DNA of 62,600 nt, the filler included, from Squatina squatina (Eukaryota), in NCBI GenBank assembly GCA_031763465.1. It is 4 parts of 3 records of this genome, joined end to end, with 100 filler letters (N's around TTAATTAATTAA, not from the genome) between each part and the next. Parts side by side here need not be neighbours in the genome. Positions count along the whole stretch, not along the records: positions 48,049 to 62,600 come from JARFOE010000004.1; 3 more parts are not named here. The stretch is one strand, 5' to 3'. The position numbers and the translations under genes were made by a program. Positions 166 to 62,600 of the stretch are shown here, one piece after another. The notes under the pieces were generated by a model that ran no database searches, had not been told where the DNA came from, and saw only the letters and a program-made list of their open reading frames with translations. How positions within the stretch are numbered: the first letter of the stretch is position 1; each line of letters begins with the position of its first letter.

Positions 166-261
166 TGAAAATGAGTTTCCACTGACCCCAGAGATGACAG
201 TACAGAAGCTGAAAGATTTGTCATTTGAAAAGGCTACAGCGTGCCATTACCATGGACTTGA
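166..261 (+). CDS. MTBP: Internal exon of Mdm2-binding protein (MTBP)
   Basis: 96-bp phase 2-2 exon bounded by ttttccatttcAG and GTAAGT. It translates ENEFPLTPEMTVQKLKDLSFEKATACHYHGL, which resembles the recalled MTBP motif FEKASVCHYHGIEY. It lies tail-to-tail with SNTB1, as in mammals. Confidence 0.7.
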
Positions 262-779
262 GTAAGTGTGATGTTCTAAAGATTCACAAATAATCCAGCA
301 AGTGAGATGTAAGATGCATTTTTTTTAATCATGGGTAAAGAATGTTGGCAAATAATTTCTGTCCACGTGTGGATTTCAAAGTAGCTTACTACAACTCCAA
401 GTGGAAAAAACCTCTTGTTTAACAAAACAAAAAGTGTCTAATGCCAGAGAACTTACGTACTCGTACACTTTAGTTTTGTACTTTTGAGTTCTTTGTTTTT
501 TTTGCCTGTTTTTAATCACCCTTTCTACAAGATTATTTGCATTAAAACCTGGTTCTCTTTTGCCACATTGAGATGGCAAGTGACCCACATATTCTTACTC
601 CCAGCAGGGTATCTCCTGTTAATGTGCTCTACGCATTTGCTTGAGGGATATGTAAGAAACTGGCACAGTTGTGGGGGGNNNNNNNNNNNNNNNNNNNNNN
701 NNNNNNNNNNNNNNNNNNNNNNNNNNNNNNNNNNNNNNNNNNNNNNNNNNNNNNNNNNNNNNNNNNNNNNNNNNNNNNC

Positions 780-1268
780 TCAGCTGCAGAGAACAATATC
801 GGTCACCCTAACTATACTGTCCCCTACCACTACTACATTCCTTTTTGCTCCCCCCACTTGAATGGCCCCCTGTGCCATGGCCAGTTTGCTCATCCTCCCT
901 GCAGTCCCTCTCTCGTCCACACAGCTTGCAAAAACCTCGGAACTGTTGGACAAGTGCAGGGGCTGCGGCTCCTCCAATGCTACCTCATGGATCCCCGTAC
1001 CTGCCGTCACAATCTCCTGTCCCTGACCACGGACCAAATCTGAATTATTTAATCTAAGGGGTGTGACCACCTCCTGCAGCGAAGTGTCCAGGTAACTTTC
1101 TCCCTCCCTGATGTGGCACAATGTCTGCAGCTCGGACTCCGGCTCATCAACTCGGAGCTGAAGTTCCTCGAGCTGCAGACACTGACTACAGATGTGCTCG
1201 CCCTGGATCACACCAGTGTCCACCAGCTCCCACATGCTGCAGCAGTAGCACATCACCTGCCCTGCCAT
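780..1268 (-). mobile_element. CR1-clade LINE ORF1 5' part (Cys zinc-finger/leucine zipper, then start of SGNH/GDSL esterase)
   Basis: ORF MAGQVMCYCCSMWE...HICSQCLQLEELQLRVDEPESEL...NVVVVGDSIVR. The GDS block-I esterase motif is typical of CR1 ORF1. Truncated by a gap. Confidence 0.8.
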
Positions 1269-1834
1269 CTCTATTGCACTTATTTAATTGATTTGCTTTT
1301 TTTTAATGTACCTGTGTATATCTACCCCAACTAATTTTTTTTAAGGTTTTGGTGTCCCTCTGATTTTTCCAGGTCATTGATTTGCCCAGCTTTTGATCAG
1401 TGGAGGGCAATGAATCGAGAACTAGCAATAACTAGTTCAAAAGAACATCTGATGTTTGCAAAGTGACGTTTTTTGTTTAATTGGATGTGATGTAAAATTG
1501 TGTGTTTCCTGCAAGCTAAGTTCAAAATGTAATTACTTCAAGTGAACTTGTACATAAGTTAGTTTCCTTTGTGAGTTACACTCTTCCTGTAATGCAACAA
1601 ATGAACACACAACCGAAATAAAGTTTATGATCATCTTTTATTCAGTATTCATTTATATACAATCAATTATCAAGCACATTCTTAAACCCAAGGTGAAAAG
1701 TCACATTTACGACAATTCATTNNNNNNNNNNNNNNNNNNNNNNNNNNNNNNNNNNNNNNNNNNNNNNNNNNNNNNNNNNNNNNNNNNNNNNNNNNNNNNN
1801 NNNNNNNNNNNNNNNNNNNNNGGGGATCCGGCGG

Positions 1835-4800
1835 GTGGGAGTGGGAGTGGAGTGGAGCAGGAGTGGATTCGGAGTGTGGGAGTGGAGTGGAGTGGATTCG
1901 GAGTGTGGGAGTGGAGTGGAGTGGATTCGGAGTCTGGGAGTGGGAGTGCAGTCGTTTCGGAATGTGGAAGTGGAGTGGAAGTGGATTCGGAGTGTGGGAG
2001 TGGGAGAGGAGTGGAGTGGGAGTGGAGTGGATTCGGAGAGTGGGAGTGGAGTGGATTCGGAGTGTGAGAGTGGGAGCGGAGTGGATTGGGAGTGGAGTGG
2101 ATTCGGAGTGTGGGTGAAAGTGGCGTGGATTCAGAGTGGTGGAGTGTGAGTGGAAGTGGATTTGGAGTGTGGGAGCGGGAGTGGTGTGGAATAGAGTGGG
2201 AGTGGATTTGGAGTGTGGGAGTTGGAGTGGAGTGGATTTGGAGTGTGGGAGTGGAGTGGAGTGGGAGTGGAGTGGATTCGGAGCGTGGGAGTGGAAGAGG
2301 AGTGGATTCGGTGTGTGGGAGTGGGAGCAGAGTGGATTCGGAGTGTGGGAGTGGGAGTGGAGTGGAGTGGGAGTGGAGTGTATTCGGAGTGTGGTTGGGA
2401 GTGGAATGGATTTGGAGTGTGGGAGTGGAAGTGGAGTGGATTCGGAGTGTGTGAGTGGGAGAGGAGTGGATTTGGAGTATGGGAGTGGAGTGGAGTGGAT
2501 TCGGATCGTGGGAGTGTAGCAGAGTGGATTCGGAGTGTGGGAGTGAAAGAGGAGTGGATTCGGAGTGTGGGAGTGGAAGAGGAATGGATTCGGAGTGTGG
2601 GAGTGGGAGTGGAGTGGATTTGGAGTGTGGGAGTGGAAGTGGAGTGGATTTGGAGTGTGTGAGTGGGAGAGGAGTGCATTTGGAGTATGGGAGTGGAGTG
2701 GAGTGGATTTGGATTGTGGGAGTGTAGCAGAGTGGATTCGGAGTGTGGGAGTGAAAGAGGAGTGGATTCGGAGAGTGGGAGTGAGAGTGGAGTGGATTCT
2801 GAGTGTGGGATTGGATTCGGAGTGTCGGTTTGGGAATAAAGTGGAGTGGAAGTGGCACTGGAGTGTATTTGGAGTGTGGGAGTGGAGTGGAGTGGATTCA
2901 GAGTGTGGGAGTGGAAGTGGGAGTGGATTTGGAGGATTGGAGTGGGAGTGGAGTGGATTCGGAGTGTGGGAGTGTGTGTGGAATGGGTTCGGAGTGTGAG
3001 AGCGGGAGTGGAGTGGAGTCAGAGTGTGGGAGTGGAGTGGAGTGGGTTCGGAGTGTGGGAGTGGAGTGGAAGTGGAGTCAGAGTGTGGGAGTGGAGTGGA
3101 GTGGAGTCAGAGTGTGGGAGTGGAGTGGTTTCGGAGTGTGGGAGTGGAGTGGAAGTGGATTCGGAGTGTGGGAGTGGGAGTAGAGTGGATTCGGAGTGTG
3201 GGAGTGGGAGTGGAGTGGTATCGGTGGTGTGGCAGCGTGAGTGGATTCCGAGAGTGGGACTGGGAGTGGAGTGGAGTGGGAGTGGATTCGGAGTGTGGGA
3301 GTGGGAGTGGAGTGGATTCGGAGTGTGGGAGTGGGAGTGGAGTGGATTCGGAGTGNNNNNNNNNNNNNNNNNNNNNNNNNNNNNNNNNNNNNNNNNNNNN
3401 NNNNNNNNNNNNNNNNNNNNNNNNNNNNNNNNNNNNNNNNNNNNNNNNNNNNNNNTGGGAGTTGATTTGGAGTGTTGGAGTTGGAGTGGAGTGGATTTCG
3501 AGTGTGAGAGTGGGAGTGGAGTGGATTCGGAGTGTGAGAGTGGGAGTGGTGTAGTGTGGGAGTTGATTTGGAGTGTTGGAGTTGGAGTGGAGTGGATTTC
3601 GAGTGTGAGAGTGGGAGTGGAGTGGATTCGGAGCGTGGGAGTGGGAGTGGAGTGGATTCAGAGTGGTGGAGTGTGAATGGGAGTGGATTTGGAGTGTGGG
3701 AGCGGGGGTGGAGTGGAATAGAGTGGGAGTGGATTTGGAGTGTTGGAGTTGGAGTGGAGTGGATTCGGATCGTGGGAGTGGAAGAGGAGTGGATTCGGTG
3801 TGTGCGAGTGGGAGCAGAGTGGATTCGGAGTGTTGGAGTGGATTCAGAATGTACGAGTGGAGTGGATATGGCGGGTGGGAGTGGGAGTGGAGTGGATTCG
3901 GAGTGTGGGAGTGGGTGTGGAGTGGAGTGGGAGTGGATTTGGAGTGTGGGAGTGGAGTGGAGTGGATTCGGAGTGTGGGAGTGGAGTGGAAGTGAATTCG
4001 GAGTGTGGTAGTGGGATTGGGAGTAGATTTGGAGTGTGGGTGTGGGAGTGGAGTTGTGTGGGAGTGGAGTGGATTCGGAGCGTGGGAGTGGGAGTGGAGT
4101 GGATTCGGAGTGTGGGAGTGGAAGTGGAATGGATTTTGAGTGTGGGAGTGGAAGTGGAGTGCCGAAGTGGGAGTGGAGTGGATTCAGAGTGTGGGAGTGG
4201 GAGTGGAGTGGATTCGGAGTGTGGGAGTAGAGTGGAGTGGATTCAGATTATGGGAGTGGGAGTGGAGTGGATACGGAGTGTGAGAGTGGGAGTGGAGTGG
4301 ACTTGGAGTGTGGGAGTAGATTCTGAGTGTGGGAGTGGATTCGGAGTGTGGGAGTGGAGTGGATTGTAATGGGAGTGGATTTGGAGTGTGGCAGTGGGAA
4401 TGGAGTGGATTCGGAGTGTGGGAGTTTGAGTGGAGTGGGCGTGGAGTGGATTCGGCGTGAGGGAGTGGGGGTGGTGTGGATTTGGAGTGTGGGAGTGGGA
4501 GTGGAGTGGATTTGGAGTGTGGGAGTGGAAGTGAATTGTAGTGGGAGTGGATTCGGAGTGTGGGAGTGGGAATGGAGTGGAGTGGGAGTGGGAGTGGATT
4601 CGGAGTCTGGGAGTGGAGTGGATTGTATTGGGAGTGGATTTGGAGTGTGGCAGTGGGAATGGAGTGGATTCGGAGTGTGGGAGATGGAGTGGAGTGGATT
4701 CGGAGTGAGGGAGTGGGAGTGGAGTGGATTCGGAGTATGGGAGTGGGAGTGGAGTGGATTCAGAGTGGTGGAGTGTGAATGGGAGTGGATTCGGAGTATG

Positions 4801-6235
4801 GGAGTGGGAGTGGAGTGGATTCAGAGTGGTGGAGTGTGAATGGGAGTGGATTTGGAGTGTGGGAGTGGATTCGGAGTGTGGGAGTGGGAGTGGAGTGGAT
4901 TTCGAGTGTGGGAGTGGAAGTGGAGTGGATTCGGAGTGTGGGAGCGGGAGTGGATTCGGAGTGTGGGAGTGGGAGTGGAGTGGATTCGGAGTGTGAGAGT
5001 AGGAGTGGAGTGCATTTGGAGTGTGGGAGTGGAGTGGAGTAGATTTGGAGTGTGGGAGTGGAGGGGAGTGGATTTGGGTTGGTGGAGTGGGAGTGGGAGT
5101 GGATTCGGAGTATGGGAGTGGAGTGGATTGTATTGGGAGTGGATTCGGAGTGTGGGAGTGGGAATGGAGTGGCTTCGGTGTGTGGAAGAGGGAGTGGAAT
5201 GGAGTGGGAGTGGAGTGGATTCGGAGTGAGGGAGTGGGAGTGGAGTGGAAGAGTGGGAGTGGATTTCGAGTGTGGGAGTGGGAGTGGAGTGAATTTGGAT
5301 TGTGGCAGATGGAGTGGAGTGGATTCGGAGCATGGGAGTGGAAGAGGAGTGGATTCGGAGTGTGGGAGTGGGAGTGGAGTGGATTCGGAGTGTGGGAGTG
5401 GGAGTGGAGTGGATTCGGAGTGTGGGAGTGGATTTGGAGTAGGAAGGGAATGGAGTGGATCGGAGTTTGGGAGTGGGAGTGGGAGTGGATTCGGAGGGTG
5501 GGTGTGGGGTGGATTCGGAGTGTGGGTGTGGGAGGGGAGTGGGAGTGGATTCGGAGTGTGGGAGTGGAGTGGATTCGGAGTCTGGGAGTGGGAGTGTAGT
5601 CGTTTTGGCGTGTGGGAGTGGAGTGGAAGTGGATTTGGAGTGTGGGAGTGGGAGTGCCGAAGTGGGAGTGGGGTGGATTCGGAGTGTGGGCGTGGGAGTG
5701 GATTCGGAGTGTGGGAGTGGGAGTGGAGTGGATTCAGAGTGTGGGAGTGGAGTGGAGTGGATTCAGAGTGTGGGAGTGGAGTGGAGTGGATTCGGAGTAT
5801 GGGAGTGGAAGTGGGAGTGGAGTGGATTCAGAGTGTGAGAGTGGGAGTGGAGTGGATTCGGAGTGTGGGAGTGGAGTGGATTGTAATGGGAGTGGAGTCA
5901 GAGTGTGGGATTGGGAATGGAGTGGATTCGGAGTGTGGGAGTTTGACTGGAGTGGGCGTGGAGTGGATTCGGCGTGAGGGAGTGGGGGTGGTGTGGATTT
6001 GGAGTGTGGGAATGGGCGTGGAGTGGATTTGGAGTGTGGGAGTGGAAGTGAATTGTAGTGGCAGTGGATTTGGAGTGTGGGAGTGGGAATGGAGTGGAGT
6101 CGGAGTGTGGGACTGGGGGTGGAGTGGAGTGGGAGTGAGAGTGGATTCGGAGTCTGGAAGTGGAGTGGATTGTATTGGGAGTGGATTTGGAGTGTGGCAG
6201 TGGGAATGGAGTGGATTCGGAGTGTGGGAGATGGA
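1835..6235. repeat. G-rich pentamer-based satellite/minisatellite, (GGAGT)n with recurring GGATTCGGAGTGTGGGAGT units
   Basis: Directly visible degenerate tandem array across two contigs (gap 3356-3455), with internal higher-order duplications (e.g. ~4330-4690 resembles ~5860-6235). Confidence 0.95.
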
Positions 6236-6766: not shown

Positions 6767-6986
6767 CTTCCAGGAGGACCTCTTTGCCAGCTCTCTTCAA
6801 CACTTGCACTGCCTCATCATGAGTTGCATCCCTCAGGTCCACTGCATTCACAGACAAGATGGCGTCCCCCACATATAGAGCCTCGGTCTGGTCAGCTGCC
6901 AGACCTTTGAAGATCTTCGAGATCAGGATTGGCATCTTGTTCTCTTTGCCTCCCTTAATGCTGATCCCCAGACCCCCGACCTCTTG
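6767..6986 (-). CDS. SNTB1: Beta-1-syntrophin PDZ-domain exon
   Basis: (K)[73 protein letters not shown] followed by a phase-1 donor GTAAAC. GKENKM, ALYVGDA and [10 protein letters not shown] fit SNTB1. Flanked by MTBP and HAS2. Confidence 0.88.
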
Positions 6987-15015: not shown

Positions 15016-15059
15016 NNNNNNNNNNNNNNNNNNNNNNNNNNNNNNNNNNNNNNNNNNNN

Positions 15060-15071
15060 TTAATTAATTAA
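15060..15071. other. Artificial scaffold linker TTAATTAATTAA (stops in all six frames) within N44 flanks
   Basis: The same 100-bp N44+12+N44 block occurs three times. Confidence 0.95.
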
Positions 15072-15306
15072 NNNNNNNNNNNNNNNNNNNNNNNNNNNNN
15101 NNNNNNNNNNNNNNNTTTTCTTATGTTCTCCAAACTCATGAATGTCTTATCTCATTGTTACACAATTCTCACTCTATTACCCGAAATATAACATATATAA
15201 GGAGAATAAGGCTAGACTATATGAGATAAGATAAGTAGGATAAATACTAAAATAATTTTACAGAAAAATGAAAAATGTCCAGATCCAATGAAAAAAGCTT
15301 TGTTAC

Positions 15307-15610
15307 CTGAGGCATACGATGTATGTTTAACAACCTTGCAACTGAAATGCTGATTTCTGAGTTAGCAGCTCCTATAACTGCCCTTACTATTGGCAAATAA
15401 TCTGTATAATTACACTGAACTTTAACACAGTTGTCTGAAGAGTTGGATTTAGAAAGGAACCTCAAGCTTGCTCTCAGTGCTATTGTTGGCTCCGTACAAG
15501 TGTCATGTAGTTCATATCCCAGTTTGATTCCAGGTAACAGAGTCGAATTGTTTACCATCTCTATGGAGTGGATCATGGCAAGCGCTTTTACAAAACCTCG
15601 CACGTCAAAC
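15307..15610 (-). CDS. GPRC6A: GPRC6A-like class C GPCR, Venus flytrap exon 2
   Basis: 304-bp exon with ttcAG acceptor and GTAACA donor. FDVRGFVKALAMIHSIEMVNNSTLLPGIKLGYELHDTCTE...VRAVIGAANSEISISVARLLNIHRMPQ; AMIHSIEMxNNSTLLPG and LRFLSK fit GPRC6A rather than CaSR/V2R. Orthologue versus paralogue is unresolved. Confidence 0.8.
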
Positions 15611-27728: not shown

Positions 27729-27920
27729 GAGAAATTGAACCTATCATAAGACTGGTGAATGGCTCAGGCCCCCATGAAGGCAGGGTAGAGGTTTTCTATG
27801 AAAAGTTATGGGGAACAGTGTGCGATGATAAATGGGACAAGCAGGATGGAGAAGTGGTCTGCAGGATGCTCGGTTATAAAGAAGCTTCTGAAACTCATAC
27901 GGCAAATAAATTTGGACAAG
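27729..27920 (+). CDS. SCARA5: Scavenger receptor class A member 5-like, first SRCR exon
   Basis: 192-bp phase 1-1 exon (ttttcattAG ... GTAATA): EIEPIIRLVNGSGPHEGRVEVFYEKLWGTVCDDKWDKQDGEVVCRMLGYKEASETHTANKFGQG. IRLVNGSGPHEGRVEV and WDKxDGxVVCRMLG match SCARA5. Confidence 0.85.
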
Positions 27921-29845: not shown

Positions 29846-29889
29846 NNNNNNNNNNNNNNNNNNNNNNNNNNNNNNNNNNNNNNNNNNNN

Positions 29890-29901
29890 TTAATTAATTA
29901 A
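29890..29901. other. Artificial scaffold linker TTAATTAATTAA
   Basis: Same N44-12-N44 structure. Confidence 0.95.
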
Positions 29902-31907
29902 NNNNNNNNNNNNNNNNNNNNNNNNNNNNNNNNNNNNNNNNNNNNGTCAGAGAAAGAGAGCACAGAACAGCGGTGCTGCCTTTTCTTTCCCACGACGCCT
30001 GAATGTGACCCCCCTTCAGCAGTTGACACAGAGCATCAACATTTCCGCATTCCTCAAACAACAAAGGCGAAACGCCGCCTGGCCTTTTTCTCTTCCCAAC
30101 TCACTCACTCTCTCTCTGTGTGTGTCTCTCAGCTCAATGAACCTTTCCCACTGTCAAGTTCCAGCCGAAAGGGGGGAAAAAAACCCTTCAGACTACACAA
30201 CGCAAGATAAGCTTCCTTCTCTCTCTTCCCCCCCACCCCCGCCATCAACCACCGACACACTTTCTCCTCATTAAAAAAAGAGCATGAAAAAATCCAAATC
30301 AACTTCCTGGATACCAACATGTTAACGGTTCAGCTCAGTTAACTTCTGGAAAAGTTAAACCAGTTTAAAAACTTGGCCACTGTCCCGCTGGATTCCGATC
30401 CTTCTTGTTTCATACGTTTGCAAAAGTGTTGGAATTCAACAAGATAATATAATCAGCCTTGATCGTGAACTTGCAAAGTATAATGCGAACAACAATCAAA
30501 AGCAATAAAGTTCACGATGTGTACGTACCGCATATCCTGCTACTTCCAGCTCATTTTGCCCTTGCCTACGTTGCCAGCAACGTATCCGAGTTCTTTGTAC
30601 AATTTTGCTCCTTTGCCCCCGAAAGTGATGTGAAAGTAACTGGTTTAAACCCTACGCAATTAATCTGTAAAAAAAAGGGCAAAACTAAACCTACAACACA
30701 ACGTTTTTCTCCAAACCAACACGTCCAAAGGGTCTGTCATACAGTAGCTCTTTTACCCACAATACTTAAAGGGAAATAGATCACGTTTCANNNNNNNNNN
30801 NNNNNNNNNNNNNNNNNNNNNNNNNNNNNNNNNNNNNNNNNNNNNNNNNNNNNNNNNNNNNNNNNNNNNNNNNNNNNNNNNNNNNNNNNNAAGGAAATAT
30901 TATAGAAGATTTTTTTTTCAAGTTTGCCAATATTATCCTGTTCAGTCACACGATGTGTTGTGCAAAACAAACCAGTTGCGCGATTTTATATCAACTTTAT
31001 CTCACCAAAGTCATTATCCGTTCCGCCTACAGGAAGATTGGAGAAATGCATGCGAGAGCATATGTGAAAGATATGGGGGCAGAAACTGGTATGTGTTGCG
31101 CCCGTTTTACGGGCATAAAATGGACACAAAGCATGCCAATTTAGCAGTGGGCCAACCTGTGCACAATCTGCGCAAATGTTGGTCCCACTGCAAAACTCGT
31201 GGGGACCATTTTTTAGGCGTCCGGGGCAGATGCATATGTCGGGGCTGCCCAGCTCAAAATTTTTCAGCAGTCCCTGTGGCTGCCAACTGCAGCTAGGTTT
31301 ATCTTTTAATTAAAAAAAACATCTTTCAAAGGAGCCAGGAGGAGCAGGTATGTCCCCCTCAACTCCACGGTCTGCACAATCATCTCCTTCTCCCATTGCC
31401 TGCTCCAACCCTTCCTCCCTGATTCACTCCTGGAGAAGGGCGAGCTGCCTGTGGAGGCATGACAGATGCTCTCAGTCACCGTGAATGTCTTGATGAGGAT
31501 GAGGCCCCAAAATGGGAGCAGACTATTTTTTGACCCATGGTATCCAGTTAGTATGACAAGAGGGATCATTTGTTACATGTCCCAGATTTCATTTAAGTAG
31601 GCACTGGGCATTGTGATTTAACTCTGGAATGCCAGAGATGCAGAATCTACTTATGGTTGTGACTGGTGCCACTGTACTCAAGAGAAGATCTACTATCATG
31701 GCTCTCAGCATGACTTTCAAAGGGTTCTTTGAAATCATTGAGTTTGATGTTTTGCAATTGGCTCCGGTTTGTGTAGCTCTGTGTCTGTGTTACAAATCAC
31801 ACAATACCATTTAATGAATTAGAATTTCACTTATTCAGTCACTATAAATCCATGACCTGATGTTATCCCTTACCTGGCATAAAAACCTTTATTCTTATAA
31901 TAGAGCA

Positions 31908-46200: not shown

Positions 46201-47992
46201 CCATAATTCTATTGATTATCAGAATCTGTGAGCCACATTCTAAAAAGTGATAAATTAATTCCTTATCAACTGGTTCTATTTTTATTATTTTCAAGTTTGT
46301 GCTGTTTCCGAATCTTGTGATAACTTTTGGTCTTCTCTGTATTATTTAACTTGTAACTAAATTTGATTAAGTAGTTTCACTATATCCCCAAGCAAGATAA
46401 ATGCGGTGAGGAAGCAACTGTGGCACTGAGGCTCATTAGGGCTTTCAAGAAATGTTAATGAGGTCTTTGTCATTTAGTGTAGTTTCAGTGCCCAAACAGT
46501 GCTGCTCGAGTTTGGCACCCATAAAAAAGGGAGACTACATGGTTCTGCCATTTTAGTTCCTGTTACTTATGGGGAAGTTTGTTTGATAGTTTACAATGAG
46601 TGTTGACCCAGAAATGTCATTGCTTATTTCATGGTGTCTTTGGGTTTCATTAATCAGCTATTTATATCTTCTTAAAGCTATACTCTGCCCATCTGTGGGT
46701 GCTATCTGAGGGAACTGTAATTGAGCTCCACCTAAATTGGACCTATAGGTATCCTGTTGGCCATCCCTCTCTATCTGTTATTTCTGGAGGAGGAAGAGCC
46801 CAGTCAGAGAAGCAGTAAAGGACGACTTACATATAAAAGATGATGGCAGTCTGATGTGCTTTGCACAGCTGTGCCTTGTAATGTACCATTTCCACGGTAC
46901 AGATGGAGAAGAAGCGTACCTGCGTCAACCAATGGCAGAAGAGGATCCCAGCCATCAGCTACCTTATGTGAGTCTGTAAATTTGCGGTATGTGAGTACCT
47001 GGTATTGTCTGTGTGTTTGGCTCCTTGTCGTATTTTATGGGGCACAGAGCAAAATACATTAACATGGCAGCAACTCCAAATCTGGGCTCGACTGTGGTTT
47101 TGGAAAGTAGGTGAGCAGTTGTCAGACTGCTGTACATTCTCCCTCTCTCTGATCCTCTACCAAGCTTACAGTGAAGAGCTATGAAGATGTATTGTAAAGA
47201 AACATTGTAAAATTGTGAACATATCAACCTTTGCGACCCTTGGAATGCCAACAAATTTTTTCCTTACCTGCTCCCAGGATCTGGTCACAGATGAGACAGC
47301 ATTTCATCTTTCTGCTATCTCCGTCCAGCTGCTTCCATGCTACTTTTCAGTGGGGGAGCCACAAAAAAGGATTAGACTTCTCTCCAGGACCCACTGCAGC
47401 AGTATCTCCAAAGATGCATCCTTTGAAGGGTGCTGTTCATTGTCTTGCTGCAAACATTTCTACCCTCAGTAGCAGTACAGCTTTAAGATAACAATAAATC
47501 TTCCTAGACTTCCCACAGCGCCTTGTATGCAGCAGGCGGCTTAATGGAAACTATTTCCCATCCACTGAAATCAATGGCCAGAAAGTTATGGGTGGTGTTT
47601 GCAGGAAGTGGCAGTTCACTTTGATTGAGAATTAGTAAAGCAAAAGGCTCTTTTTGTTGCTGACAGTAGCTGAGATTTTCCAATGCTAACTGCTGATTAT
47701 CATGGGGCAAATCAAGCAGTTGATGGTGCAAATTTTGGTGAGAGTTATGTAACTGAGCTCAGTTTGCACCCTGGCATAATATCAGGGGATTATCTCCAGT
47801 GATGTAGGATGTACCTGCCTCAAAAAGATGGGAACTTAATTGAAATATTGCTTTGGGGCAGAGGCATTCTCTCCGCCATTCCCTGATATTCGGACCTGCA
47901 TTTCGTCAATGTCAATGGTTGTAAGCATCCAGCCGAGCCTCGGAACAGNNNNNNNNNNNNNNNNNNNNNNNNNNNNNNNNNNNNNNNNNNNN

Positions 47993-48004
47993 TTAATTAA
48001 TTAA
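47993..48004. other. Artificial scaffold linker TTAATTAATTAA
   Basis: Same N44-12-N44 structure. Confidence 0.95.
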
Positions 48005-48244
48005 NNNNNNNNNNNNNNNNNNNNNNNNNNNNNNNNNNNNNNNNNNNNCCAAGAGAGTTCAACCCAAAGACAGGCCAGCAGGGGCTCAGAGTGAGGCTAT
48101 GAAGTAAAGAGTCATGTGATGAGCAAAGGTAAAATGGAGCCTAATCTGACTGCTCTCACTTGCGCTCGATTCTCTGAGCTGAGGCCCGTGTCACCGCTGA
48201 AAAATCCAGGCGTTGTCACGGCTGTGTTTGGTGCACACTGACAC

Positions 48245-50697: not shown

Positions 50698-50876
50698 GTG
50701 CGATTGAACTGGATCTGAACAGATTTACACGTGGAGCAAAAACAGCCAAGCTATGCACAATTGAAATGGCTACAGATGAATCTGCTTTTCCCACAGTCTC
50801 CATTTTTAAACAGAAGAGGGTGAAGGGCTGGTGGCCATTCGTGGCCAGAAATGAAAATGATGAAATGGAGCTTACA
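50698..50876 (+). CDS. OTOF: Otoferlin C2F-region exon
   Basis: 179-bp exon (ggcAG ... GTAAGA): [60 protein letters not shown], close to recalled OTOF. Convergent with DRC1, as in mammals. Confidence 0.9.
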
Positions 50877-52655: not shown

Positions 52656-54099
52656 TTTTATGAGTTATGTTCTTGTCAAAAAGCTCTTGTTTTGGTAGAA
52701 GTTCTTTTTGTGGAGTGAAAGCAGTTCATCTGGTGTAAGCAAGGGACCAACTCTCACATTCTCATGTAGGGCTTATAACTAACCAGCAGATACTGGATTC
52801 ACCTAGGTGTTAAGTGATGGATGCATAAGCATATATATGTAATCAAGACAATATTCTAAGACATATTAAACTGCAATGCATTCTATTCATTCCCATTAAT
52901 TAGAAGGTGTAACACAAGCATGGCATTTTTTGGCATGTGGCTTATGCATTCATGAGGCTTGTTTTCTTGTTACATTATAGCAATGTGATACAACATACAG
53001 GGAGACTTGATGAGAACCAGGTTCAAATCCAGCTCACTATTAAGTAGGGCAAGTAATTTGCCTGAAAGNNNNNNNNNNNNNNNNNNNNNNNNNNNNNNNN
53101 NNNNNNNNNNNNNNNNNNNNNNNNNNNNNNNNNNNNNNNNNNNNNNNNNNNNNNNNNNNNNNNNNNNNTAGCACGTTCATTACTTCCAGGGCTTTTAAGC
53201 AAAACTGCTTTATTTGAGCAGCAAATTGGACTACATGGTGCAAGTTGAGATATTTGTGGGATTTGTTGCAGGATATTGCCCACTTCAAATCACTTGCCGT
53301 GGAAAATCAGAGCAGCATAAAGACATGACAGTAGGCATGCCACATCATCAGGCCCAGAGGCCTACCGTGCACGTGCCATTGCCCCAATGCAGGACTGAAG
53401 TGCTGTTGGAGCATGTGAGAGGCACTCTAATCACTCGGTGACCAGTTGGAGTGGGCATTTCAGGGGAAGCAAAGAAAATACCCACATATCTAAGAAACAC
53501 TAGTTTGAGAAGGTGAGAGCATATTTGTCCAACCACAATTACAGATAAATCTGTTATTTTTCTATCAGACCAGCTCTAGTATTAATGTAATTTTCATGAC
53601 TAATAAATAAAGTAGCACTTTACAAGGCATGATTGCACTGTGGGAAATGGCAGACAGTATGCCCTGGATAACATTAATGTTCTATTTGCTTTGTAATTGA
53701 TAATTGCCTCTCTTTGTAATACATTTCTCATTGTGTACATCCATGAAAATATGAAAGGTTTTTGTGGACATACAATTGTACTATCATGTTCTATTTTGTG
53801 TTACTCTTTGTATGGATCTTTTTTGTGTAACTAACTTTTGGTTCATGTTGTGAAAACAATGCAAAAAAAAATGAGCTATTAAAATTTGAAATAAAGTATT
53901 AAAAATATCTGCATCAAACTGGGGACACTGTCTTCCATTAGCTAGGTGTTTCCAGTGAAACCAATCAACTTACAGACAAGACCATTGCATTAGTTAACTN
54001 NNNNNNNNNNNNNNNNNNNNNNNNNNNNNNNNNNNNNNNNNNNNNNNNNNNNNNNNNNNNNNNNNNNNNNNNNNNNNNNNNNNNNNNNNNNNNNNNNNN

Positions 54100-55251
54100 T
54101 ATGGAGAGGTGCACGGAGGGCGATGTGCTTGCAATCATTTGCACCCTGCACCCTGGGGAACCTGGCTATATTGGCGAACCCCAGGGCTTACTATTGCTAT
54201 AAAGGCTATAAAGGTATGATATGCACTGCCTTCTTTTTCTGTAGAGTAATTTGGTGACCTGTCTAATGGAGCAATGGACTGCATAATGGAAGATGTTGGA
54301 GATGTCACTGGTAGCACCTTGAAATGATCCATTCGCGTAAAAGTTCAGTGCTACTGTTACTTTCACGGCCACAGAAAGAGCTGTGAAAGCCCTGCTCTGT
54401 GGCTGCAGGTCAGCCTGAAGGCCTTGGCATAGTTCAGTGATGGCTTCCTTCCTGAAACGGAGTCTTCAAAAGCATTGCTCATCCGTCATCTGCAGGTAGC
54501 TGAACTGATGTCTGAAGACTCGGTGAGCATATCTCCTTCCTCGCCGACCCCTTGGAGGATGCTGTAAGGGTCTGGCCTGTGCCACCACTGGTTGAGCTGG
54601 CTCTGGCAAGTCAAGGGGTTGTTCGGTGTGGTCATGGTGCGGAGCTGGTGCTTCCTCCTCCCTACCCTCATTTTGCACGGGCGTCATCTCTCTCTGCTCC
54701 AAAAGGAGCCGACACCTCTCCCTGAGGTACCTCATGTGGTGTCGGCAGAGTTCCCAGTCCACCGCTAAAGCAGCAACCATGCCCGATTGGGAACGATCTG
54801 GTGAACAGTAAAATGCTCACCCAAAAGCAAAGTTATCTGTGGGAAACACAGCCCCTGGCTTGCAGACAATACCTCCAGTCCGATTGAACTGTCAGCAATG
54901 CAATTTCTGCAAGCAACATGGCGAACTCACCTACCCCTTTAAATAGTGCCAGAAATCATGGGAGGGAGTGTGTCACCACCTGAAAAAACGTTATTTCTTG
55001 AGGTTTGTAGCGCTACCGAATTGCTTGTGGGGTGGCCATTTTAGGTGTTGCGCTTCTTGATGATGTCATGGAGGCCATCCAACGCCCGACACCATGTTTC
55101 CAGTGCTCCGGGCACAGCGCCCATTTGGCACCGGCGCTGGTCTGATGCGATTTTGGCAGCGGAGCCCCTTAGTGCCCGAAACGGGTGTCACACCCCTAGC
55201 GCCTCTTTCACGCTCATTCTGTGCCTGCGCTAAAGGGCCAATTGGGCGCCC
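54100..55251 (-). mobile_element. Harbinger transposon with decayed HARBI1-like DDE transposase
   Basis: RVFRHQFSYLQMTDEQCF*RLRFRKEAITELC...LSVAVKVTVALNFYANGSFQ.../FPRVQGANDCKHIALRAP, with a stop and frameshifts; terminus GGGCGCCCAATT at 55251. Confidence 0.88.
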
Positions 55252-55732
55252 TACATATTTAAAATGAATTAAAATGGCATTTAATTAAATATTTAAAATA
55301 AAAATTTAATTTTTTGAGAAATAAATTTACATGCTTTAATGGGGCTAAAAATAAACTTACCTTACTGTACAGGGTTTTTAATGTAAATGATTGATAACAT
55401 TTTATTTTTCTGTTTTTTTAAACTCTTACATTGGTAAAAGCAGACCTTATGCCGCTTTTACCAGGCGTAAGAATTTCACGGGCATTCGCTGGGCAGAGGT
55501 TGGGCAAATAGCCCAACTCTCCGCCGGGGAGGCCCTTTGCCCGAGGATCCGGGAATCTGTCAAGAGAATTCTTGACAGGTCTCATGTTCTGGGTTTTAGC
55601 GCATGCCTAAACCCGGAACTTGTGCGGCCCCTACGGGTGCATGCGCACCTTGTACGCGCCCATAGGGGCCACAAATTATGGCCCATTATCTTGACTCTTA
55701 ATAATTGGCTTATAATTGATATATATTTATAT

Positions 55733-55826
55733 CTGACGAAAGGTCATCAACCTGAAACGTTAACTATTTCTCTCTCCACAGATGCTGCTGACCTGCTGAA
55801 TATTTCCAGCACTTTCTGTTTTTATT
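55733..55826 (+). mobile_element. Penelope-type terminal repeat with minimal hammerhead ribozyme core
   Basis: CTGACGA-A-AGGT-catca-ACCT-GAAACGTT-AACT, then TCTCTCCACAGATGCTGC...TTTCCAGC...TTTCTGTTTTTATT. Confidence 0.6.
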
Positions 55827-55920
55827 GTATAATTGACCAGTTATCATTTAAAGGTTGCTACTAGTTCCATGCCCACCAATTTGTTTTTCTTCACACTTAA
55901 ACACATTAAAGAATTCCTAC

Positions 55921-56156
55921 CTCCCAGAATAACTTCTTCTGCCAGTTGAACAGCTGATTTTTTCTTCTTGGCACAGGATACAATTGGTCCAACATTCTTC
56001 ATAAAACACAGATCTGGCATTGTCCAACTCAAGCCCATCTGTTGCTCATGGATTATTCGGTCAGCATCGAGGGCCTTTCTGACTAGATCCTTTGCCTCTT
56101 CCTCGTTCATTAACCAAATGCCTTCAAATTTCTTTGCATCAATTGCAGCAAAATGT
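55921..56156 (-). CDS. DRC1: Dynein regulatory complex subunit 1 (CCDC164) internal exon
   Basis: 236-bp exon (ttttatcAG ... GTAGGA): HFAAIDAKKFEGIWLMNEEEAKDLVRKALDADRIIHEQQMGLSWTMPDLCFMKNVGPI...KSAVQLAEEVILG. IWLMNEEEAKDL matches DRC1; lies between OTOF and SELENOI. Confidence 0.9.
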
Positions 56157-57088
56157 CTGATAAAAGAAAATATAAAGTACTGATTTTTACAATATTCTAA
56201 TCAAATACTTATCAAGCTTTTTTTTCGTAGAGTGTGTTAAAACAGCATTAACTGCCTTTATGAGTAGCCGAGCAGACTTACAAATTTTACTTGGGGGACC
56301 TGTTAATTTTATACTTGTGTAATTCTGTGCTAATATCAAAAATTATGGGGCCTGCTTGTATCGGCATCTCCATGCTTCTGAGCACTTTATAGACTTGGAT
56401 AATTTCTCTGCTCTCAATCTTCTTTTCTCCAATAATATCAATTCAGCTCTGTAAGCCACTCTTCATAACCTCAAGGCCAAAGTCACAGAATCATCCGGTC
56501 ACTCTTCTCTCAGCTCTCTCTATCATATTAATGGCCTTTTAAAACCTGGATGCCCAAAACTGTGTACATTACTTCAAAAATGGTCTTGCTATATGGTTTA
56601 ACTTGTTTGAACTCTTTATCAAATGCCTCAAGATGCACTCCCCTCACATAATTAGCCTTGCTAATAACAACTTCACAATAATTGGATGTATTCAGAAAAA
56701 TGGCTAATAATCAGCCAAGAGGAGGCCAGTTCTTCATATGGTATGTTCATCATGTACAACTCCTCCTCCCTATCCTATTTCATCATTTACAGCTTTAAAG
56801 TTTAAAGAGACATATTGGGCTGGTAATTCTGGAATTGGGAGTTCTCATNNNNNNNNNNNNNNNNNNNNNNNNNNNNNNNNNNNNNNNNNNNNNNNNNNNN
56901 NNNNNNNNNNNNNNNNNNNNNNNNNNNNNNNNNNNNNNNNNNNNNNNNAAGTCACAAAGGTCTTTAAAGTACTTAAGCTTGACAAAAATTTTTTTTTAAT
57001 TGATTCTGACAAAATGTGTATATAACACTATGTTTACAAACCCCACAGAAAAGCTGCATTAAAACCAATTTAACTACCAGTTGGCAAG

Positions 57089-57105
57089 TTTATTTCACTT
57101 TTATT
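57089..57105 (-). promoter_or_regulatory. Candidate distal poly(A) signals of SELENOI
   Basis: Two minus-strand AATAAA (57100-57105, 57089-57094) followed by U/GU-rich sequence (TTGGTTTT...TTTTCTGTGGGGTTTGT). Confidence 0.4.
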
Positions 57106-60100
57106 GTGTGCCTCACCAATAAAGTCATGGCCAAATTTCGTTTGCCGTCTAGTATTGAAGCTATACAATTGTTACTAATGCTGCAACTTGCAAATGTTTC
57201 ACTTTACAATGTCAAAATATTTTTAAGAATCTTTCAATTTAACAGAAGGGGTTGTCAGAATTTAAGATTTCCCCCAAGTGTTTCAATCATACTCCGTTTT
57301 GTAGAACCCCTCATCAAACAAGCCCTGTCCAAAAATATCCTGCATCTGCAAGCCATAATATTGTAATATTTTAGTTTTATGGAAAATTCATAACTTTGAG
57401 TACCTCTAATTTTTCTGAAATATTACTCATTTAAGGTGAAAACAGGTAAATTTTATCCCATGTTGTATCAATCACTAACAATTTATGATTAAAGGGAAAA
57501 ATTCACCAGGCAATTGATTGCAAATATACGTAATTTTTTTTAAATTGCCATCCGAGTTTTACATCTTAGCATATGCAAAATTGACTTTTCTTCTCGTACT
57601 CCCTTGTTTCCCAGTAAACCATTGTAAACTTGTGAAAATACATGGGAGGGAGAAGAGACAGAAAATGAGCAACCTCTAACATTCACAGCCTCAGAAAAAC
57701 ATCAGAGCAGAAAAATATTACTGAACACATATCTAATAGAGATAAAACTGTACATAAATATTCAGATTAAGTTACCTGTATGCATAAGAGGTTGAGCATT
57801 AACAATAATTGCATACCTTCACTGAATGTTTAACTGTAACCAGGCTTCTCTGAATTATACAGTGTGTAAATAATTAAACCAGTTAAACAATCATTCACAG
57901 ATTAAAAGTCAGTATTAAGTGAGCAGCAAAATGGTTTATTAACTATATTAATAAAATCTGGTTTCAAAGGATAGAAAACAGAAGACAGATCTTGATATAG
58001 TTGAATGCTAAATTACAGGTTTGCCAAAAACATTTCATGACCACTGTGCAAATTGAACTGAATAACAGTGCACTGGAATGTCATGCTTGAAAAGCACTTC
58101 AAAATCTAGTATACATCTGGCAAGGTTCAATATTATAGAAAGCCGAAAACATGGTGTGTGGAAATAATTTAGTTATCCGTCTGATTGTACAGGACCTCCG
58201 GTACTTTGGGTATATGGGAACAGCCACAATGCACCTTTGGAACCAAAAGCACAAAAGGCCACAATAGTTACTGAATCCACTTCATAATCACATATAAAGA
58301 GGTTTACAGATCTCAGTGCTAAATAAGTTAACTAATTGTGCTAAGAGAGTGATGTAAACAAAGCCAAAATTTGACCATCAGCCCTTTATACACAATATTT
58401 GAAGTTTTCCAGAAATTTTAGACTGCCACTGCTTCAAAAAAACTTACAACACGGTTATAGGGTGCTCTTTTTTTCTGCTATATCGTGCATGGTTTAAAAT
58501 AAAAAAGACCAAGGAAAATACTGCAGTCCTGCAAGAAATATCAAGTCCAAGGTGAAAATTGCACCCAATGAATTATCGCTTTTGGAAAAAAGCAAAAAGT
58601 CTAGTTTGTAGCGCATGGGAAAGTGTTCAATACTATCCTTATCTTCTATAAATAAATAAAAATCAGTTACATGAGTCACCCGTGAGTGCAACAATGTTCA
58701 CCATTTTCTCCACACAGCATCTGGTTAATATAACTTTTATTTAAAGCTTACAATTTAGGGGGAATATTGTGCTTTTGCAGGTTACTTCTGTGAATTTAAT
58801 ATAAAAATATAGCAAAATCCTGTGATACCTACAGGCACACAAGCTCTGGACATTTCATCCCTTACTCAATGTCAGAAAATTTGAGTGCAGAGTGCCAGAA
58901 AATAACCCATTTGCACCATCAGAACCTGCACATTCTCCAGTAATTTTTCATTTTTCAAGTCAGAAATTCATGTTACTGTACTTGTAATATCATGGATCAT
59001 ATCAAGTGTAATCTAAAATAGCCTTCTTACACACAAAATTCATTCATCTCAATAGGGCAGCAGTTCCATTTTTTTATTAACAGGGAGAATGGAAATTGTA
59101 TCCTGCATATTGTACAAAATAAGGGCTGGTTGAAAATGATTCACGGAACGTGCGCCTATAACAATTTCAAAACGATACACACATCAATGCTTCACGCCAA
59201 ACCATTAATCAATGTTCCACTTCCGGCAATGAAGATGCCAGATGGAGAGGAAAGTAAAAGGATTTGTACAGTTACATGACAGTAACATAATTGTAGCAAA
59301 CAAAAATGGATGTCCTTAAGAAATATTGCTGCAATTATGTAAACAGCAGTTGGTNNNNNNNNNNNNNNNNNNNNNNNNNNNNNNNNNNNNNNNNNNNNNN
59401 NNNNNNNNNNNNNNNNNNNNNNNNNNNNNNNNNNNNNNNNNNNNNNNNNNNNNNNNNNNNNNNNNNNNNNNNNNNNNNNNNNNNNNNNNNNNNNNNNNNN
59501 NNNNNNNNNNNNNNNNNNNNNNNNNNNNNNNNNNNNNNNNNNNNNNNNNNNNNNNNNNNNNNNNNNNNNNNNNNNNNNNNNNNNNNNNNNNNNNNNNNNN
59601 NNNNNNNNNNNNNNNNNNNNNNNNNNNNNNNNNNNNNNNNNNNNNNNNNNNNNNNNNNNNNNNNNNNNNNNNNNNNNNNNNNNNNNNNNNNNNNNNNNNN
59701 NNNNNNNNNNNNNNNNNNNNNNNNNNNNNNNNNNNNNNNNNNNNNNNNNNNNNNNNNNNNNNNNNNNNNNNNNNNNNNNNNNNNNNNNNNNNNNNNNNNN
59801 NNNNNNNNNNNNNNNNNNNNNNNNNNNNNNNNNNNNNNNNNNNNNNNNNNNNNNNNNNNNNNNNNNNNNNNNNNNNNNNNNNNNNNNNNNNNNNNNNNNN
59901 NNNNNNNNNNNNNNNNNNNNNNNNNNNNNNNNNNNNNNNNNNNNNNNNNNNNNNNNNNNNNNNNNNNNNNNNNNNNNNNNNNNNNNNNNNNNNNNNNNNN
60001 NNNNNNNNNNNNNNNNNNNNNNNNNNNNNNNNNNNNNNNNNNNNNNNNNNNNNNNNNNNNNNNNNNNNNNNNNNNNNNNNNNNGTGGTGTACAGCTGCAA

Positions 60101-60627
60101 CACAACTTCAAATTGTAAATTAAATTGGTGCACTAAGCAGTCTTGCGAGCATCTCATGGAAGATAATATAAATAAATTAACATATTTTAAATCTTTATGG
60201 TACACTAATTTGGATCAGTTGAATTCCTTTAAACTGAAATTGGAGCCAGTTCAAAATCGTTAACACAAATTAGTAAACAAAATATTAGAATTGGAACTGT
60301 TCTACTTGCCCAAACTATACTTTGAACAGAAGTTACACTGATGTAATATGAAAATGTTTTATTATAGCAAGCTTCACCAGTAAGAGATACCTCTATGGAA
60401 AAGAGACCATTGACTAAATTGTACTCAACATATAAGAAGGATCCATCAAATTATTTTAACAAAAATATGAATTCTTACACCACAAAGCAGGACTGTCTGA
60501 ACATTCCCCCTACTGTAGTGTAATTGCTAAAATGTGAAAATCTACACAATATATTCATTGCCTTTCCTAAAGAGAGTTTAGGTACAAAACCTCTGGTTGT
60601 GCACCTAAACTAAATACAATTACTGCT

Positions 60628-60697
60628 AATCATGCTTGTTCCTTCCAAGTATACCTTGCTCTAAGACTTTTAGTATACTCTTCATTCAAGCACAATC
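60628..60697 (-). promoter_or_regulatory. SECIS element in the SELENOI 3' UTR
   Basis: RNA: GAUUGUGCUUG-A-AUGAA-GAGUAUACU-AAAAGUCUUAGAGCAA-GGUAUACUU-GGAA-GGAA-CAAGCAUGAUU. It shows helix I, an AUGA/GA non-Watson-Crick core, a 9-bp helix II and unpaired apical As. Confidence 0.9.
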
Positions 60698-61194
60698 CTC
60701 CATGAAAGAAAACCAGAATTTATAGTAGAAAATCGGCATGCATTCACCACCGCAAAGCTGAATATTTGAAACAAAAGAAAAAGTGAAAACAGCAATTTAA
60801 GAGGTTTTGATTTGTTTCTGATAATCCACAATGTTTAAAAACTTTACATTTTCATTCAATTCCCTTTGCAAATTTTATAATTTACTCATTCAAAAAAAAG
60901 CCTTCTTTAAATACATGCCTTAAATATAGGCTGTGGCAAATTCCAACATACTAGGTTCACATACTATTCCCTCTTTTTAAAGACCTGCAAGTTCCAATAT
61001 CAGCAACTTTGCTCAATTGGGCTTTAAAGGCAAGTGAATGTTCAGTCTCTCTAGTATTATAAGCGAGGTGGAATTGTCTTTCAAAACATGTCATTTCAAT
61101 AAAAGAGTAAAAACGTGCAGTACCAAATACTTTGTGAAATATTTCTTTATCATTGGTGATAATTACCGTTTGTCTTTTTTTTCTGTTTTGGTAG

Positions 61195-61368
<174 letters not shown>

Positions 61369-61768
61369 TAATGCTTTACAGGTAGGTCACCCCTAAATTG
61401 TCAGCAGCAGATGTAGGATGACTATTGCTCACTGTAATCTAAGTAAATATTTGTATCGATAGCTGACATTTTGGTCATCAAAAATATTATACCAAAATGT
61501 GTTTCTACTTACCACCTAATATTTGTGCTATGAGATTAAATAAATTAAATTGATTTCTATTCATTACGTGTGTAACAGAACTGTAAAAAATGAATGGCCA
61601 TTTTCCATTGTAGTGTTCCTGCTGTCCTGAAATGTTCCGTAGAAAATTAAATCTTTTGTAGAAANNNNNNNNNNNNNNNNNNNNNNNNNNNNNNNNNNNN
61701 NNNNNNNNNNNNNNNNNNNNNNNNNNNNNNNNNNNNNNNNNNNNNNNNNNNNNNNNNNNNNNNNTTCT

Positions 61769-61879
61769 TTACAATTCAGAAGCCTGCAAGCCAATTTTCT
61801 GTTCCTCCTCTAGTCATTCTGTATTCGGTTTCTTCAGGGAGAAGGCGTAAATGTTAAAATGTTTGCTCAGCTGATTCAC
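61769..61879 (-). CDS. SELENOI: Selenoprotein I / ethanolaminephosphotransferase 1, last coding exon with in-frame Sec UGA
   Basis: Acceptor ttttatcttaaaacAG; VNQLSKHFNIYAFSLKKPNTE-U(TGA 61816-61814)-LEEEQKIGLQASEL*(TAA). Aligns with recalled human [32 protein letters not shown]. Syntenic with DRC1 and OTOF. Confidence 0.92.
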
Positions 61880-62264
61880 CTGTTTTAAGATAAAATAAAA
61901 TTACTGTACTCCCAAGTTTAAAAAAAAAAGGATTTTTTTTTTTACTTCCCTGGAAAATGACACGTATCTAATTCATGTATCTATTTTCAATTCCAAGGCT
62001 TACTGGGTTATTTGTGGTATTTTTCTTTCATTGTGAACTGTTCTAAAACTACTTAGAGTTCTTTACCCATTCACCCTGAGTGAGCAATATATATTCTAAG
62101 CTCCAGAAATGAAACAATACTATGCTAACCCACCTATATAGCATCTATTCTAAAATTAACATAGAAATGCTGCAAACACACAGTTCAATCATTAGTGGTA
62201 AAGAAGTTTTGAGTGTTTACCCTTCAACAGAATTGCCTTTCAAAGCTACTGTGTCATGTACTGT

Positions 62265-62600
62265 AGGGCTTGACAGGGTAGACGCAGGGAGGATGTTTTC
62301 CCTGGCTGGGAGGGTCCAGAACACAGTCTTAAAATAAAGGGTAGGCCATTTAGGACTGAGATGAGGAGATATTTCTTCACTCAGAGGGTAGTGAATATTT
62401 AGAATTGTCCACCCCAGAGGGCTGTTGAAGCTCAGTCATTGAGTATATTCAAAATAAAGATTGATAAGATTTCTAGATATTAAAGGCAACAAGGGATATG
62501 GGGATAGTGCAAGAAAATGGCGTTGAGGTCGAAGCTGAGCCATGATCTTATTGAATGGAAGAGCAGGCTCGAGGGGCCGAATGGTCTACTCCTGTTCCTA
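62265..62600 (+). mobile_element. CR1 LINE 3' end (intronic in SELENOI)
   Basis: GLDRVDAGRMFSL...FRTEMRRYFFTQRVVNI, with tail GAATGGTCTACTCCTGTTCCTA. Confidence 0.88.

Follow-up and report, generated by a model that had tools for sequence, protein, structure and literature searches.

Organization of the locus

The window (the whole stretch of 62,600 nucleotides of Squatina squatina DNA analyzed here) contains 38 runs of N and is thus a chain of short contigs; hence, every statement about neighboring genes crosses gaps of undefined size. Its main feature is a minus-strand exon whose coding part reads as 21 codons (VNQLSKHFNIYAFSLKKPNTE), a TGA, 14 further codons (LEEEQKIGLQASEL) and a TAA, precisely as an earlier note on this DNA had read it. 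It belongs to the cartilaginous-fish orthologue of SELENOI/EPT1, whose last coding exon it forms. Downstream of it on the same strand is a SECIS-like hairpin, and the stretch between the UGA and the hairpin holds an assembly gap and an antisense exon of CCDC171 (Table 1). The hairpin, the sequence context of the UGA (UGA_CUAG) and the CCDC171 exon go beyond what the earlier note had described. The DRC1/OTOF neighborhood that it had named is present in the form of one exon of each gene, in the expected order and on the expected strands, each separated by gaps from the SELENOI exon; this arrangement matches what we take to be the human gene order near SELENOI.

Table 1. Features of the window, with position, strand and basis of assignment
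Feature	Position	Strand	Basis or remark
Syntrophin PDZ exon	6767-6986	-	closest to beta-1-syntrophin
Class C GPCR ligand-binding exon	15307-15610	-	best PDB matches taste receptor T1R3, CaSR
SRCR-domain exon	27729-27920	+	best single-domain PDB match SCARA5
Otoferlin (OTOF) exon, neighbor, opposite strand to SELENOI	50698..50876	+	E 8e-26
DRC1 exon, neighbor, same strand as SELENOI	55921..56156	-	PDB E 9e-23
AATAAA, first candidate poly(A) signal past the SECIS	60358..60363	-	sequence motif
SECIS-like element	60628..60697	-	structural pattern, folding, sub-threshold Rfam match
CCDC171 penultimate exon, intact, 51 codons, AG and GTAAGT splice sites	61195..61347	+	protein matches
Intron sequence after CCDC171 exon	61385..61438	+	13/18 residues match tail of Callorhinchus CCDC171 model
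100-N assembly gap (nominal size)	61665..61764	.	4 bases after TAA; splits coding exon from SECIS contig
Last SELENOI/EPT1 exon, coding part	61769..61879	-	translation; tblastn; alignment with relatives
TAA, probable true stop	61769..61771	-	sequence reading
UGA_CUAG context (TGA CTA G), known stop-codon readthrough motif	61810..61816	-	motif from PMC5868278
In-frame TGA, predicted Sec codon, equivalent to human Sec387	61814..61816	-	column equivalence with relatives
Splice acceptor region, phase 0	61880..61915	-	junction shared with divergence point of 4 aberrant database models

The rest of the window is of a mixed nature. The class C GPCR exon is presumably GPRC6A-like, and the minus strand of 54100-54800, beside the DRC1 exon, has what we take to be a likeness to a remnant of a Harbinger-type transposase; a piece of the latter region gave no Pfam match. 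About 4.4 kb (1835-6235) consist of a degenerate G-rich satellite based on TGGAG, with a GC skew near 0.87, and three gaps (15016-15115, 29846-29945 and 47949-48048) consist of 12 bases flanked on each side by 44 N, a pattern of assembly artefact. A search for tRNAs in the window found none. In the little skate, Sntb1 is located on Leri_4C (PMC10115646), a different chromosome from that of Selenoi, and the syntrophin exon is hence either a paralogue or a mis-join in a patchwork scaffold.

The last coding exon of SELENOI

The acceptor of the exon is an A/T-rich tract ending in TCTTAAAACAG (a CAG end) directly before GTG, in phase 0. The boundary is also the point at which four of the 54 named database models discussed below (P0171, P0172, P0174 and P0180) depart from the normal sequence. 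The earlier note had called this a good acceptor: an acceptor is indeed present and its boundary agrees with the four models, but as an acceptor it is adequate and not strong.

The homology search that the note had proposed, in the form of tblastn with Hemitrygon EPT1, gives 21/21 identity at 61879-61817 of the window. With the exon and seven upstream intron codons as the query, two proteins were matched among six candidates, both of them Hemitrygon EPT1, identical to the exon in all 21 residues before the TGA and ending exactly at it. The C-terminal 99 residues of Hemitrygon EPT1 in turn matched 61 proteins among 118 candidates, and the counts of EPT1 relatives given here cover the 54 named ones, with the seven unnamed left out. 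The best named matches to the exon are EPT1 proteins: over the 21 residues preceding the UGA, the chondrichthyan versions are identical at 21/21 (Hemitrygon), 20/21 (Mustelus) and 19/21 positions (Stegostoma), and the range among relatives is 13-21/21 in 44 orthologue-type proteins versus 12-15/21 in six EPT1-like paralogues. By this comparison, the C-terminal exon resembles EPT1 more than it does the EPT1-like paralogue, and the latter was ruled out as the identity of the exon by its lower residue identity.

The CDP-alcohol phosphotransferase domain (PF01066) is present in the matching relatives, and the upstream SELENOI exons lie outside the window. The 36-residue peptide specified by the exon itself matches no Pfam family and has a single chance match in the PDB (E 1.7); the five PDB matches for shark EPT1 include no SELENOI structure. 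Every vertebrate examined has been reported to possess SelI, which is also assigned to the ancestral vertebrate set (PMC3316567); its origin was placed at the root of the vertebrates by a 2026 survey with nine cartilaginous fish among its species (PMC13134290). Thus, such an orthologue is to be expected and adds little biology; because SELENOI is already an established vertebrate selenoprotein, the exon is an orthologue and not a discovery.

The in-frame UGA and the tail following it

The Mustelus EPT1 model, which is 386 amino acids long, stops at the TGA column, and the Sec of human SELENOI is residue 387 (PMC8540796). Judged by alignment, the TGA stands at the position of human Sec387, which bears out the statement in the earlier note that vertebrate SELENOI carries Sec near its C-terminus. 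A synthetic peptide of the human protein with Cys substituted for Sec reads KPNSDCLGMEEK, and its Sec-containing counterpart comes from endogenous SELENOI of HEK293T cells by mass spectrometry (PMC12520545). Around the TGA, the window reads KPNTE-TGA-LEEEQK; three of the six residues following the TGA are identical to the human peptide, the first being Leu in both. The similarity that the note had seen on both sides of the codon therefore holds, with the chondrichthyan identities given above before the TGA and 3/6 human residues after it. This comparison past the UGA spans six human residues, and none of the 54 named relatives extends beyond the UGA column.

Identity at 3/6 residues after the stop is reached by 6 of the 5610 stop triplets in the window, and a BLOSUM62 score to the human post-Sec residues equal to that of the exon by 7/5610, the Sec site being included in both counts. 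An open stretch of 14 codons follows 2568 of the same 5610 triplets, and is so common that alone it means nothing; it is the homology that lifts the exon above chance.

Among the named relatives, 50/54 end at the residue just before the TGA column, namely the 44 orthologue-type proteins and the six EPT1-like paralogues, and the other four are those diverging at the exon junction. A sequencing error or a pseudogene as the source of the TGA was ruled out by these 50 proteins stopping in the same column. As the earlier note had anticipated of ordinary annotation, the EPT1 models are truncated at the UGA in all three chondrichthyan species found, Hemitrygon, Mustelus and Stegostoma (P0002, P0003, P0124 and P0125). 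That none of the 54 named matches goes past the UGA suggests that Sec-bearing records are possibly missing from the collection, and the share of truncated annotations is not readable from these matches. Sec codons are commonly misannotated as stops (PMC13134290). In terms of annotation, the product of the shark gene ought to include Sec and a further 14 residues. Separately, the Hemitrygon EPT1 models have an N-terminal extension of 47 residues that is absent from the other aligned orthologues.

A candidate SECIS element downstream of the UGA

The SECIS-like hairpin combines a helix I of 11 bp, a 5' core A-UGAA (60685-60681) and a 3' core GGAA (60646-60643) with a short helix II of 9 bp, an unpaired AAAA (60671-60668) and a weak apical mini-stem, with which a type 2 form is possible. 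It thus has the features of SECIS anatomy: the core, two helices, an unpaired apical AA, location on the same strand as the coding exon and a downstream position. The core fits the SECIS consensus UGAN/KGAW (PMC3753652), and the SECIS of human SelI is of form 2 (PMC3328465).

A structural pattern, written after the hairpin had been seen, finds it as the only AA-type match in the 58,398 called bases of the window on both strands; one CC-type match lies inside the OTOF exon. When the contig was shuffled, 48/2000 shuffles gave any match to this pattern and 3/2000 gave one as good as the hairpin. The fold has a z of -3.87 with trimmed ends (0/200 shuffles) and of -1.45 with 96 bases (15/200 shuffles). 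The bare SECIS sequence motif is not enriched in the window, with 49 matches versus 54 expected. At the gathering score, Rfam gave no match over the whole window, and a scan of 8.6 kb (54000-62600) gave nine weak matches, none of them a SECIS. A scan of 161 bases gave five, the best being SECIS_1 (17.3 bits, E 0.54, against a gathering score of 35), followed by SECIS_5 (16.4 bits against 50); the hairpin accordingly stays below the score of the curated Rfam SECIS families, although its core and AAA are aligned in both matches. We also take the 5' arm of the hairpin to resemble the human SELENOI element, a likeness not counted here as evidence. A SELENOI SECIS sequence with which the hairpin could be compared directly was not found in the literature, including the available portions of PMC3328465, PMC2761289 and PMC12628022 (two supplements), and SelI does not appear in the available text of PMC2761289.

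The hairpin lies 1029 bases plus the assembly gap from the UGA, i.e. about 1.1 kb, which falls inside the range of 207-5207 given for mammals (PMC3316567). Past the first candidate poly(A) signal, seven further A[AT]TAAA sites occur downstream on the minus strand, as far as 57000. The region 56949-61664, possibly a long 3' UTR of SELENOI, is A/T-rich (GC 0.33), matches nothing else in the window and contains, on its minus strand, eight hexamers resembling poly(A) signals. The hairpin appears to strengthen the selenocysteine reading, its placement on the same mRNA as the UGA being presumed on the basis of the pathway established in vertebrates.

The antisense CCDC171 exon and the integrity of the SECIS contig

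The contig bearing the hairpin (60084-61664) also contains the CCDC171 exon, antisense to SELENOI and located between the TGA and the hairpin. A search with this exon matched 141 proteins among 163 candidates, nearly all of the 120 listed being named CCDC171; among the matches listed, the identity is 51/51 to four sharks, 45-48/51 to batoids and 39/51 to the coelacanth. The match of the following intron to the tail of the Callorhinchus model indicates that sequence of the CCDC171 locus extends past the exon. The Callorhinchus and Latimeria CCDC171 models (P0016, P0029 and P0030) appear to run into the last intron and not to contain the true last exon.

This contig is probably chimeric, with the SELENOI 3' UTR and its SECIS at the low end misjoined to a piece of CCDC171. 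In the little skate, Ccdc171 (27.9 Mb) lies close to Bnc2 (28.6 Mb) on Leri_3C, and Selenoi on a different chromosome, Leri_5C, at 42.5 Mb (PMC10115646, SI Table 10). The sequences bearing EPT1 and CCDC171 differ in listed size in both Mustelus (148,774,877 versus 147,988,225) and Stegostoma (132,187,655 versus 139,723,901), an indirect indication that could also reflect assembly versions. The exon is protein-identical to that of four sharks and has intact splice sites, as expected of a working gene, no other CCDC171 exon was found in the window, and the assembly is very fragmented. Against a misjoin, neither a junction, a repeat nor a composition step was found in the contig between the SECIS and the exon, and chimeras joining unique sequences are uncommon. 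Were the contig chimeric, the Sec reading would stand, and the UGA-SECIS distance in the window would not be real.

The arrangement could instead be genuine, a genomic fragment of CCDC171 (the exon with flanking intron) having been duplicated in recent times into the 3' UTR of SELENOI, where it would separate the UGA from the SECIS, or CCDC171 and SELENOI being interleaved in this lineage. We consider this unlikely, although a single contig free of gaps holds both the exon and the SECIS at a spacing of about 500 bases, the position and orientation of the contig are right for a 3' UTR and the nominal UGA-SECIS distance is ordinary. It sits poorly with the separate chromosomes of the two genes in the skate (PMC10115646); a target-site duplication around the exon was looked for in the contig and not seen, and interleaving would need a working CCDC171 to have its other exons on both sides, where none were found. 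A misplaced contig with a chance hairpin is improbable.

An overlap of CCDC171 and SELENOI dating back to the chondrichthyan ancestor was also considered and is unsupported by the available part of the skate table (PMC10115646). No literature linking SELENOI with CCDC171, or on shark CCDC171, was found, the only listing in either case being unrelated, and the five supplements of PMC8302630 gave no gene rows. The CCDC171 exon is either a warning about this assembly or a rare case of an insertion that entered the 3' UTR of a selenoprotein gene and left its SECIS intact.

Decoding of the UGA

It is very probable that the UGA in this last SELENOI exon is decoded as Sec by means of the downstream SECIS, with 14 more residues up to the TAA. 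Recoding was the central claim of the earlier note, and it is supported by the identity of the gene, the position of the UGA in the Sec387 column, the similarity on both sides of it and the SECIS-shaped element downstream on the right strand. In this species, Sec insertion would follow the established vertebrate pathway: upon the ribosome reaching the UGA at the position of residue 387, the hairpin, lying in the 3' UTR some 1.1 kb past the codon, would bind SECISBP2 via its tandem G-A core, and the SECISBP2-bound SECIS would bring eEFSec with Sec-tRNA to the UGA. Sec would then be inserted and translation would continue through the 14 further residues to the TAA.

The immediate context of the codon raises the tentative possibility of a second route, in which near-cognate tRNAs, besides Sec insertion, read the UGA_CUAG at a few percent without a SECIS and supply a non-Sec full-length protein when selenium is short. 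In reporters, this context gives about 1.3-17% readthrough in a SECIS-independent manner (PMC5868278), and the Leu-Gly following Sec in the human protein is compatible with the same context, judging from the residues only (PMC12520545). Misreading of Sec codons as Trp, Arg or Cys occurs under aminoglycosides (PMC9599142). In the window, TGA is followed by CTAG at 4 of the 2284 TGA triplets, the SELENOI site included, and CTA makes up 5 of the 46 Leu codons in seven exons. Against this, the context comes from one sequence only, its chance is about 1 in 9 given Leu at +1 and Glu at +2, and the main text of PMC5868278, whose search covered annotated stops only, does not mention EPT1/SELENOI. With the residues fixed, a chance of this order makes the context a lead and no more. 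It is thus doubtful, if possible, that the SELENOI Sec codon has two recoding signals, a distant SECIS for Sec and a local UGA_CUAG for ordinary tRNAs. If it does, and if the local context is conserved throughout the vertebrates, selection would act on the tail as such and not on the selenium atom alone, and the selenium supply would shift cells between full-length enzyme with and without Sec. This would open a direct way of testing what makes a selenoprotein of a non-redox lipid enzyme.

A plain stop at the UGA, with the protein ending in PNTE as in the database models, is very improbable. The termination of all 50 named relatives with the exon at the UGA column, inclusive of the six EPT1-like paralogues, would accord with it, as would the in vitro activity of human EPT1 truncated at the UGA (PMC8540796). 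However, Sec codons are often misannotated as stops (PMC13134290), the human orthologue has Sec at this place by mass spectrometry (PMC12520545), and in SECISBP2-mutant human cells there is a drop in a 75Se band that was attributed to SELENOI from its mobility (PMC9599142). The likeness of the residues after the UGA to the human ones and the presence of the SECIS-like hairpin likewise argue against a plain stop. Readthrough of UGA_CUAG as the sole mechanism is more unlikely still.

Accepting Sec insertion at the UGA as the preferred reading, the question is what the residue does. SELENOI makes phosphatidylethanolamine (PE) and plasmenyl-PE (PMC12936836). Sec lies outside the catalytic core and the UGA-truncated human enzyme retains its activity in vitro (PMC8540796), which makes a regulatory or stability role the best guess. 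Hence, the Sec tail most likely tunes the amount, stability or redox sensitivity of the enzyme rather than catalysis. A 2026 preprint used a predicted SELENOI model with Cys at 387 (10.64898/2026.05.02.722203). The role of Sec387 is not decided by a further orthologue; the UGA_CUAG context offers an inexpensive lead on it.

Comparison with known systems

The exon shares with vertebrate SELENOI/EPT1 the last-exon sequence, the exon boundary, the UGA at 387, the Leu after it, a downstream SECIS-like element and the proximity of DRC1/OTOF; it differs in the CCDC171 exon in the apparent 3' UTR and may differ in its 14-residue tail after the UGA. The EPT1-like paralogue of bowfin, frogs and turtle (P0173, P0175, P0177-P0179 and P0181) belongs to the same family and ends at the same column, but only 12-15 of its 21 residues are identical to those of the window exon. 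Its end column may mean either that the Sec tail arose by recoding of an ancestral stop or that the paralogue is a second, unannotated selenoprotein. CEPT1/CHPT1, again of the same family, are the only relatives of solved structure among the PDB matches for shark EPT1 (five sequences, best E 2.5e-33); unlike SELENOI, they are not selenoproteins and are without the Sec extension (PMC3316567, PMC8540796). The genes with UGA_CUAG readthrough (AQP4, OPRL1, OPRK1, MAPK10, VDR and the malate/lactate dehydrogenases; PMC5868278) resemble the SELENOI site in the immediate CUAG and a short in-frame extension. They use a near-cognate tRNA without a SECIS, whereas the SELENOI site has a SECIS-like element and, in the human orthologue, Sec.
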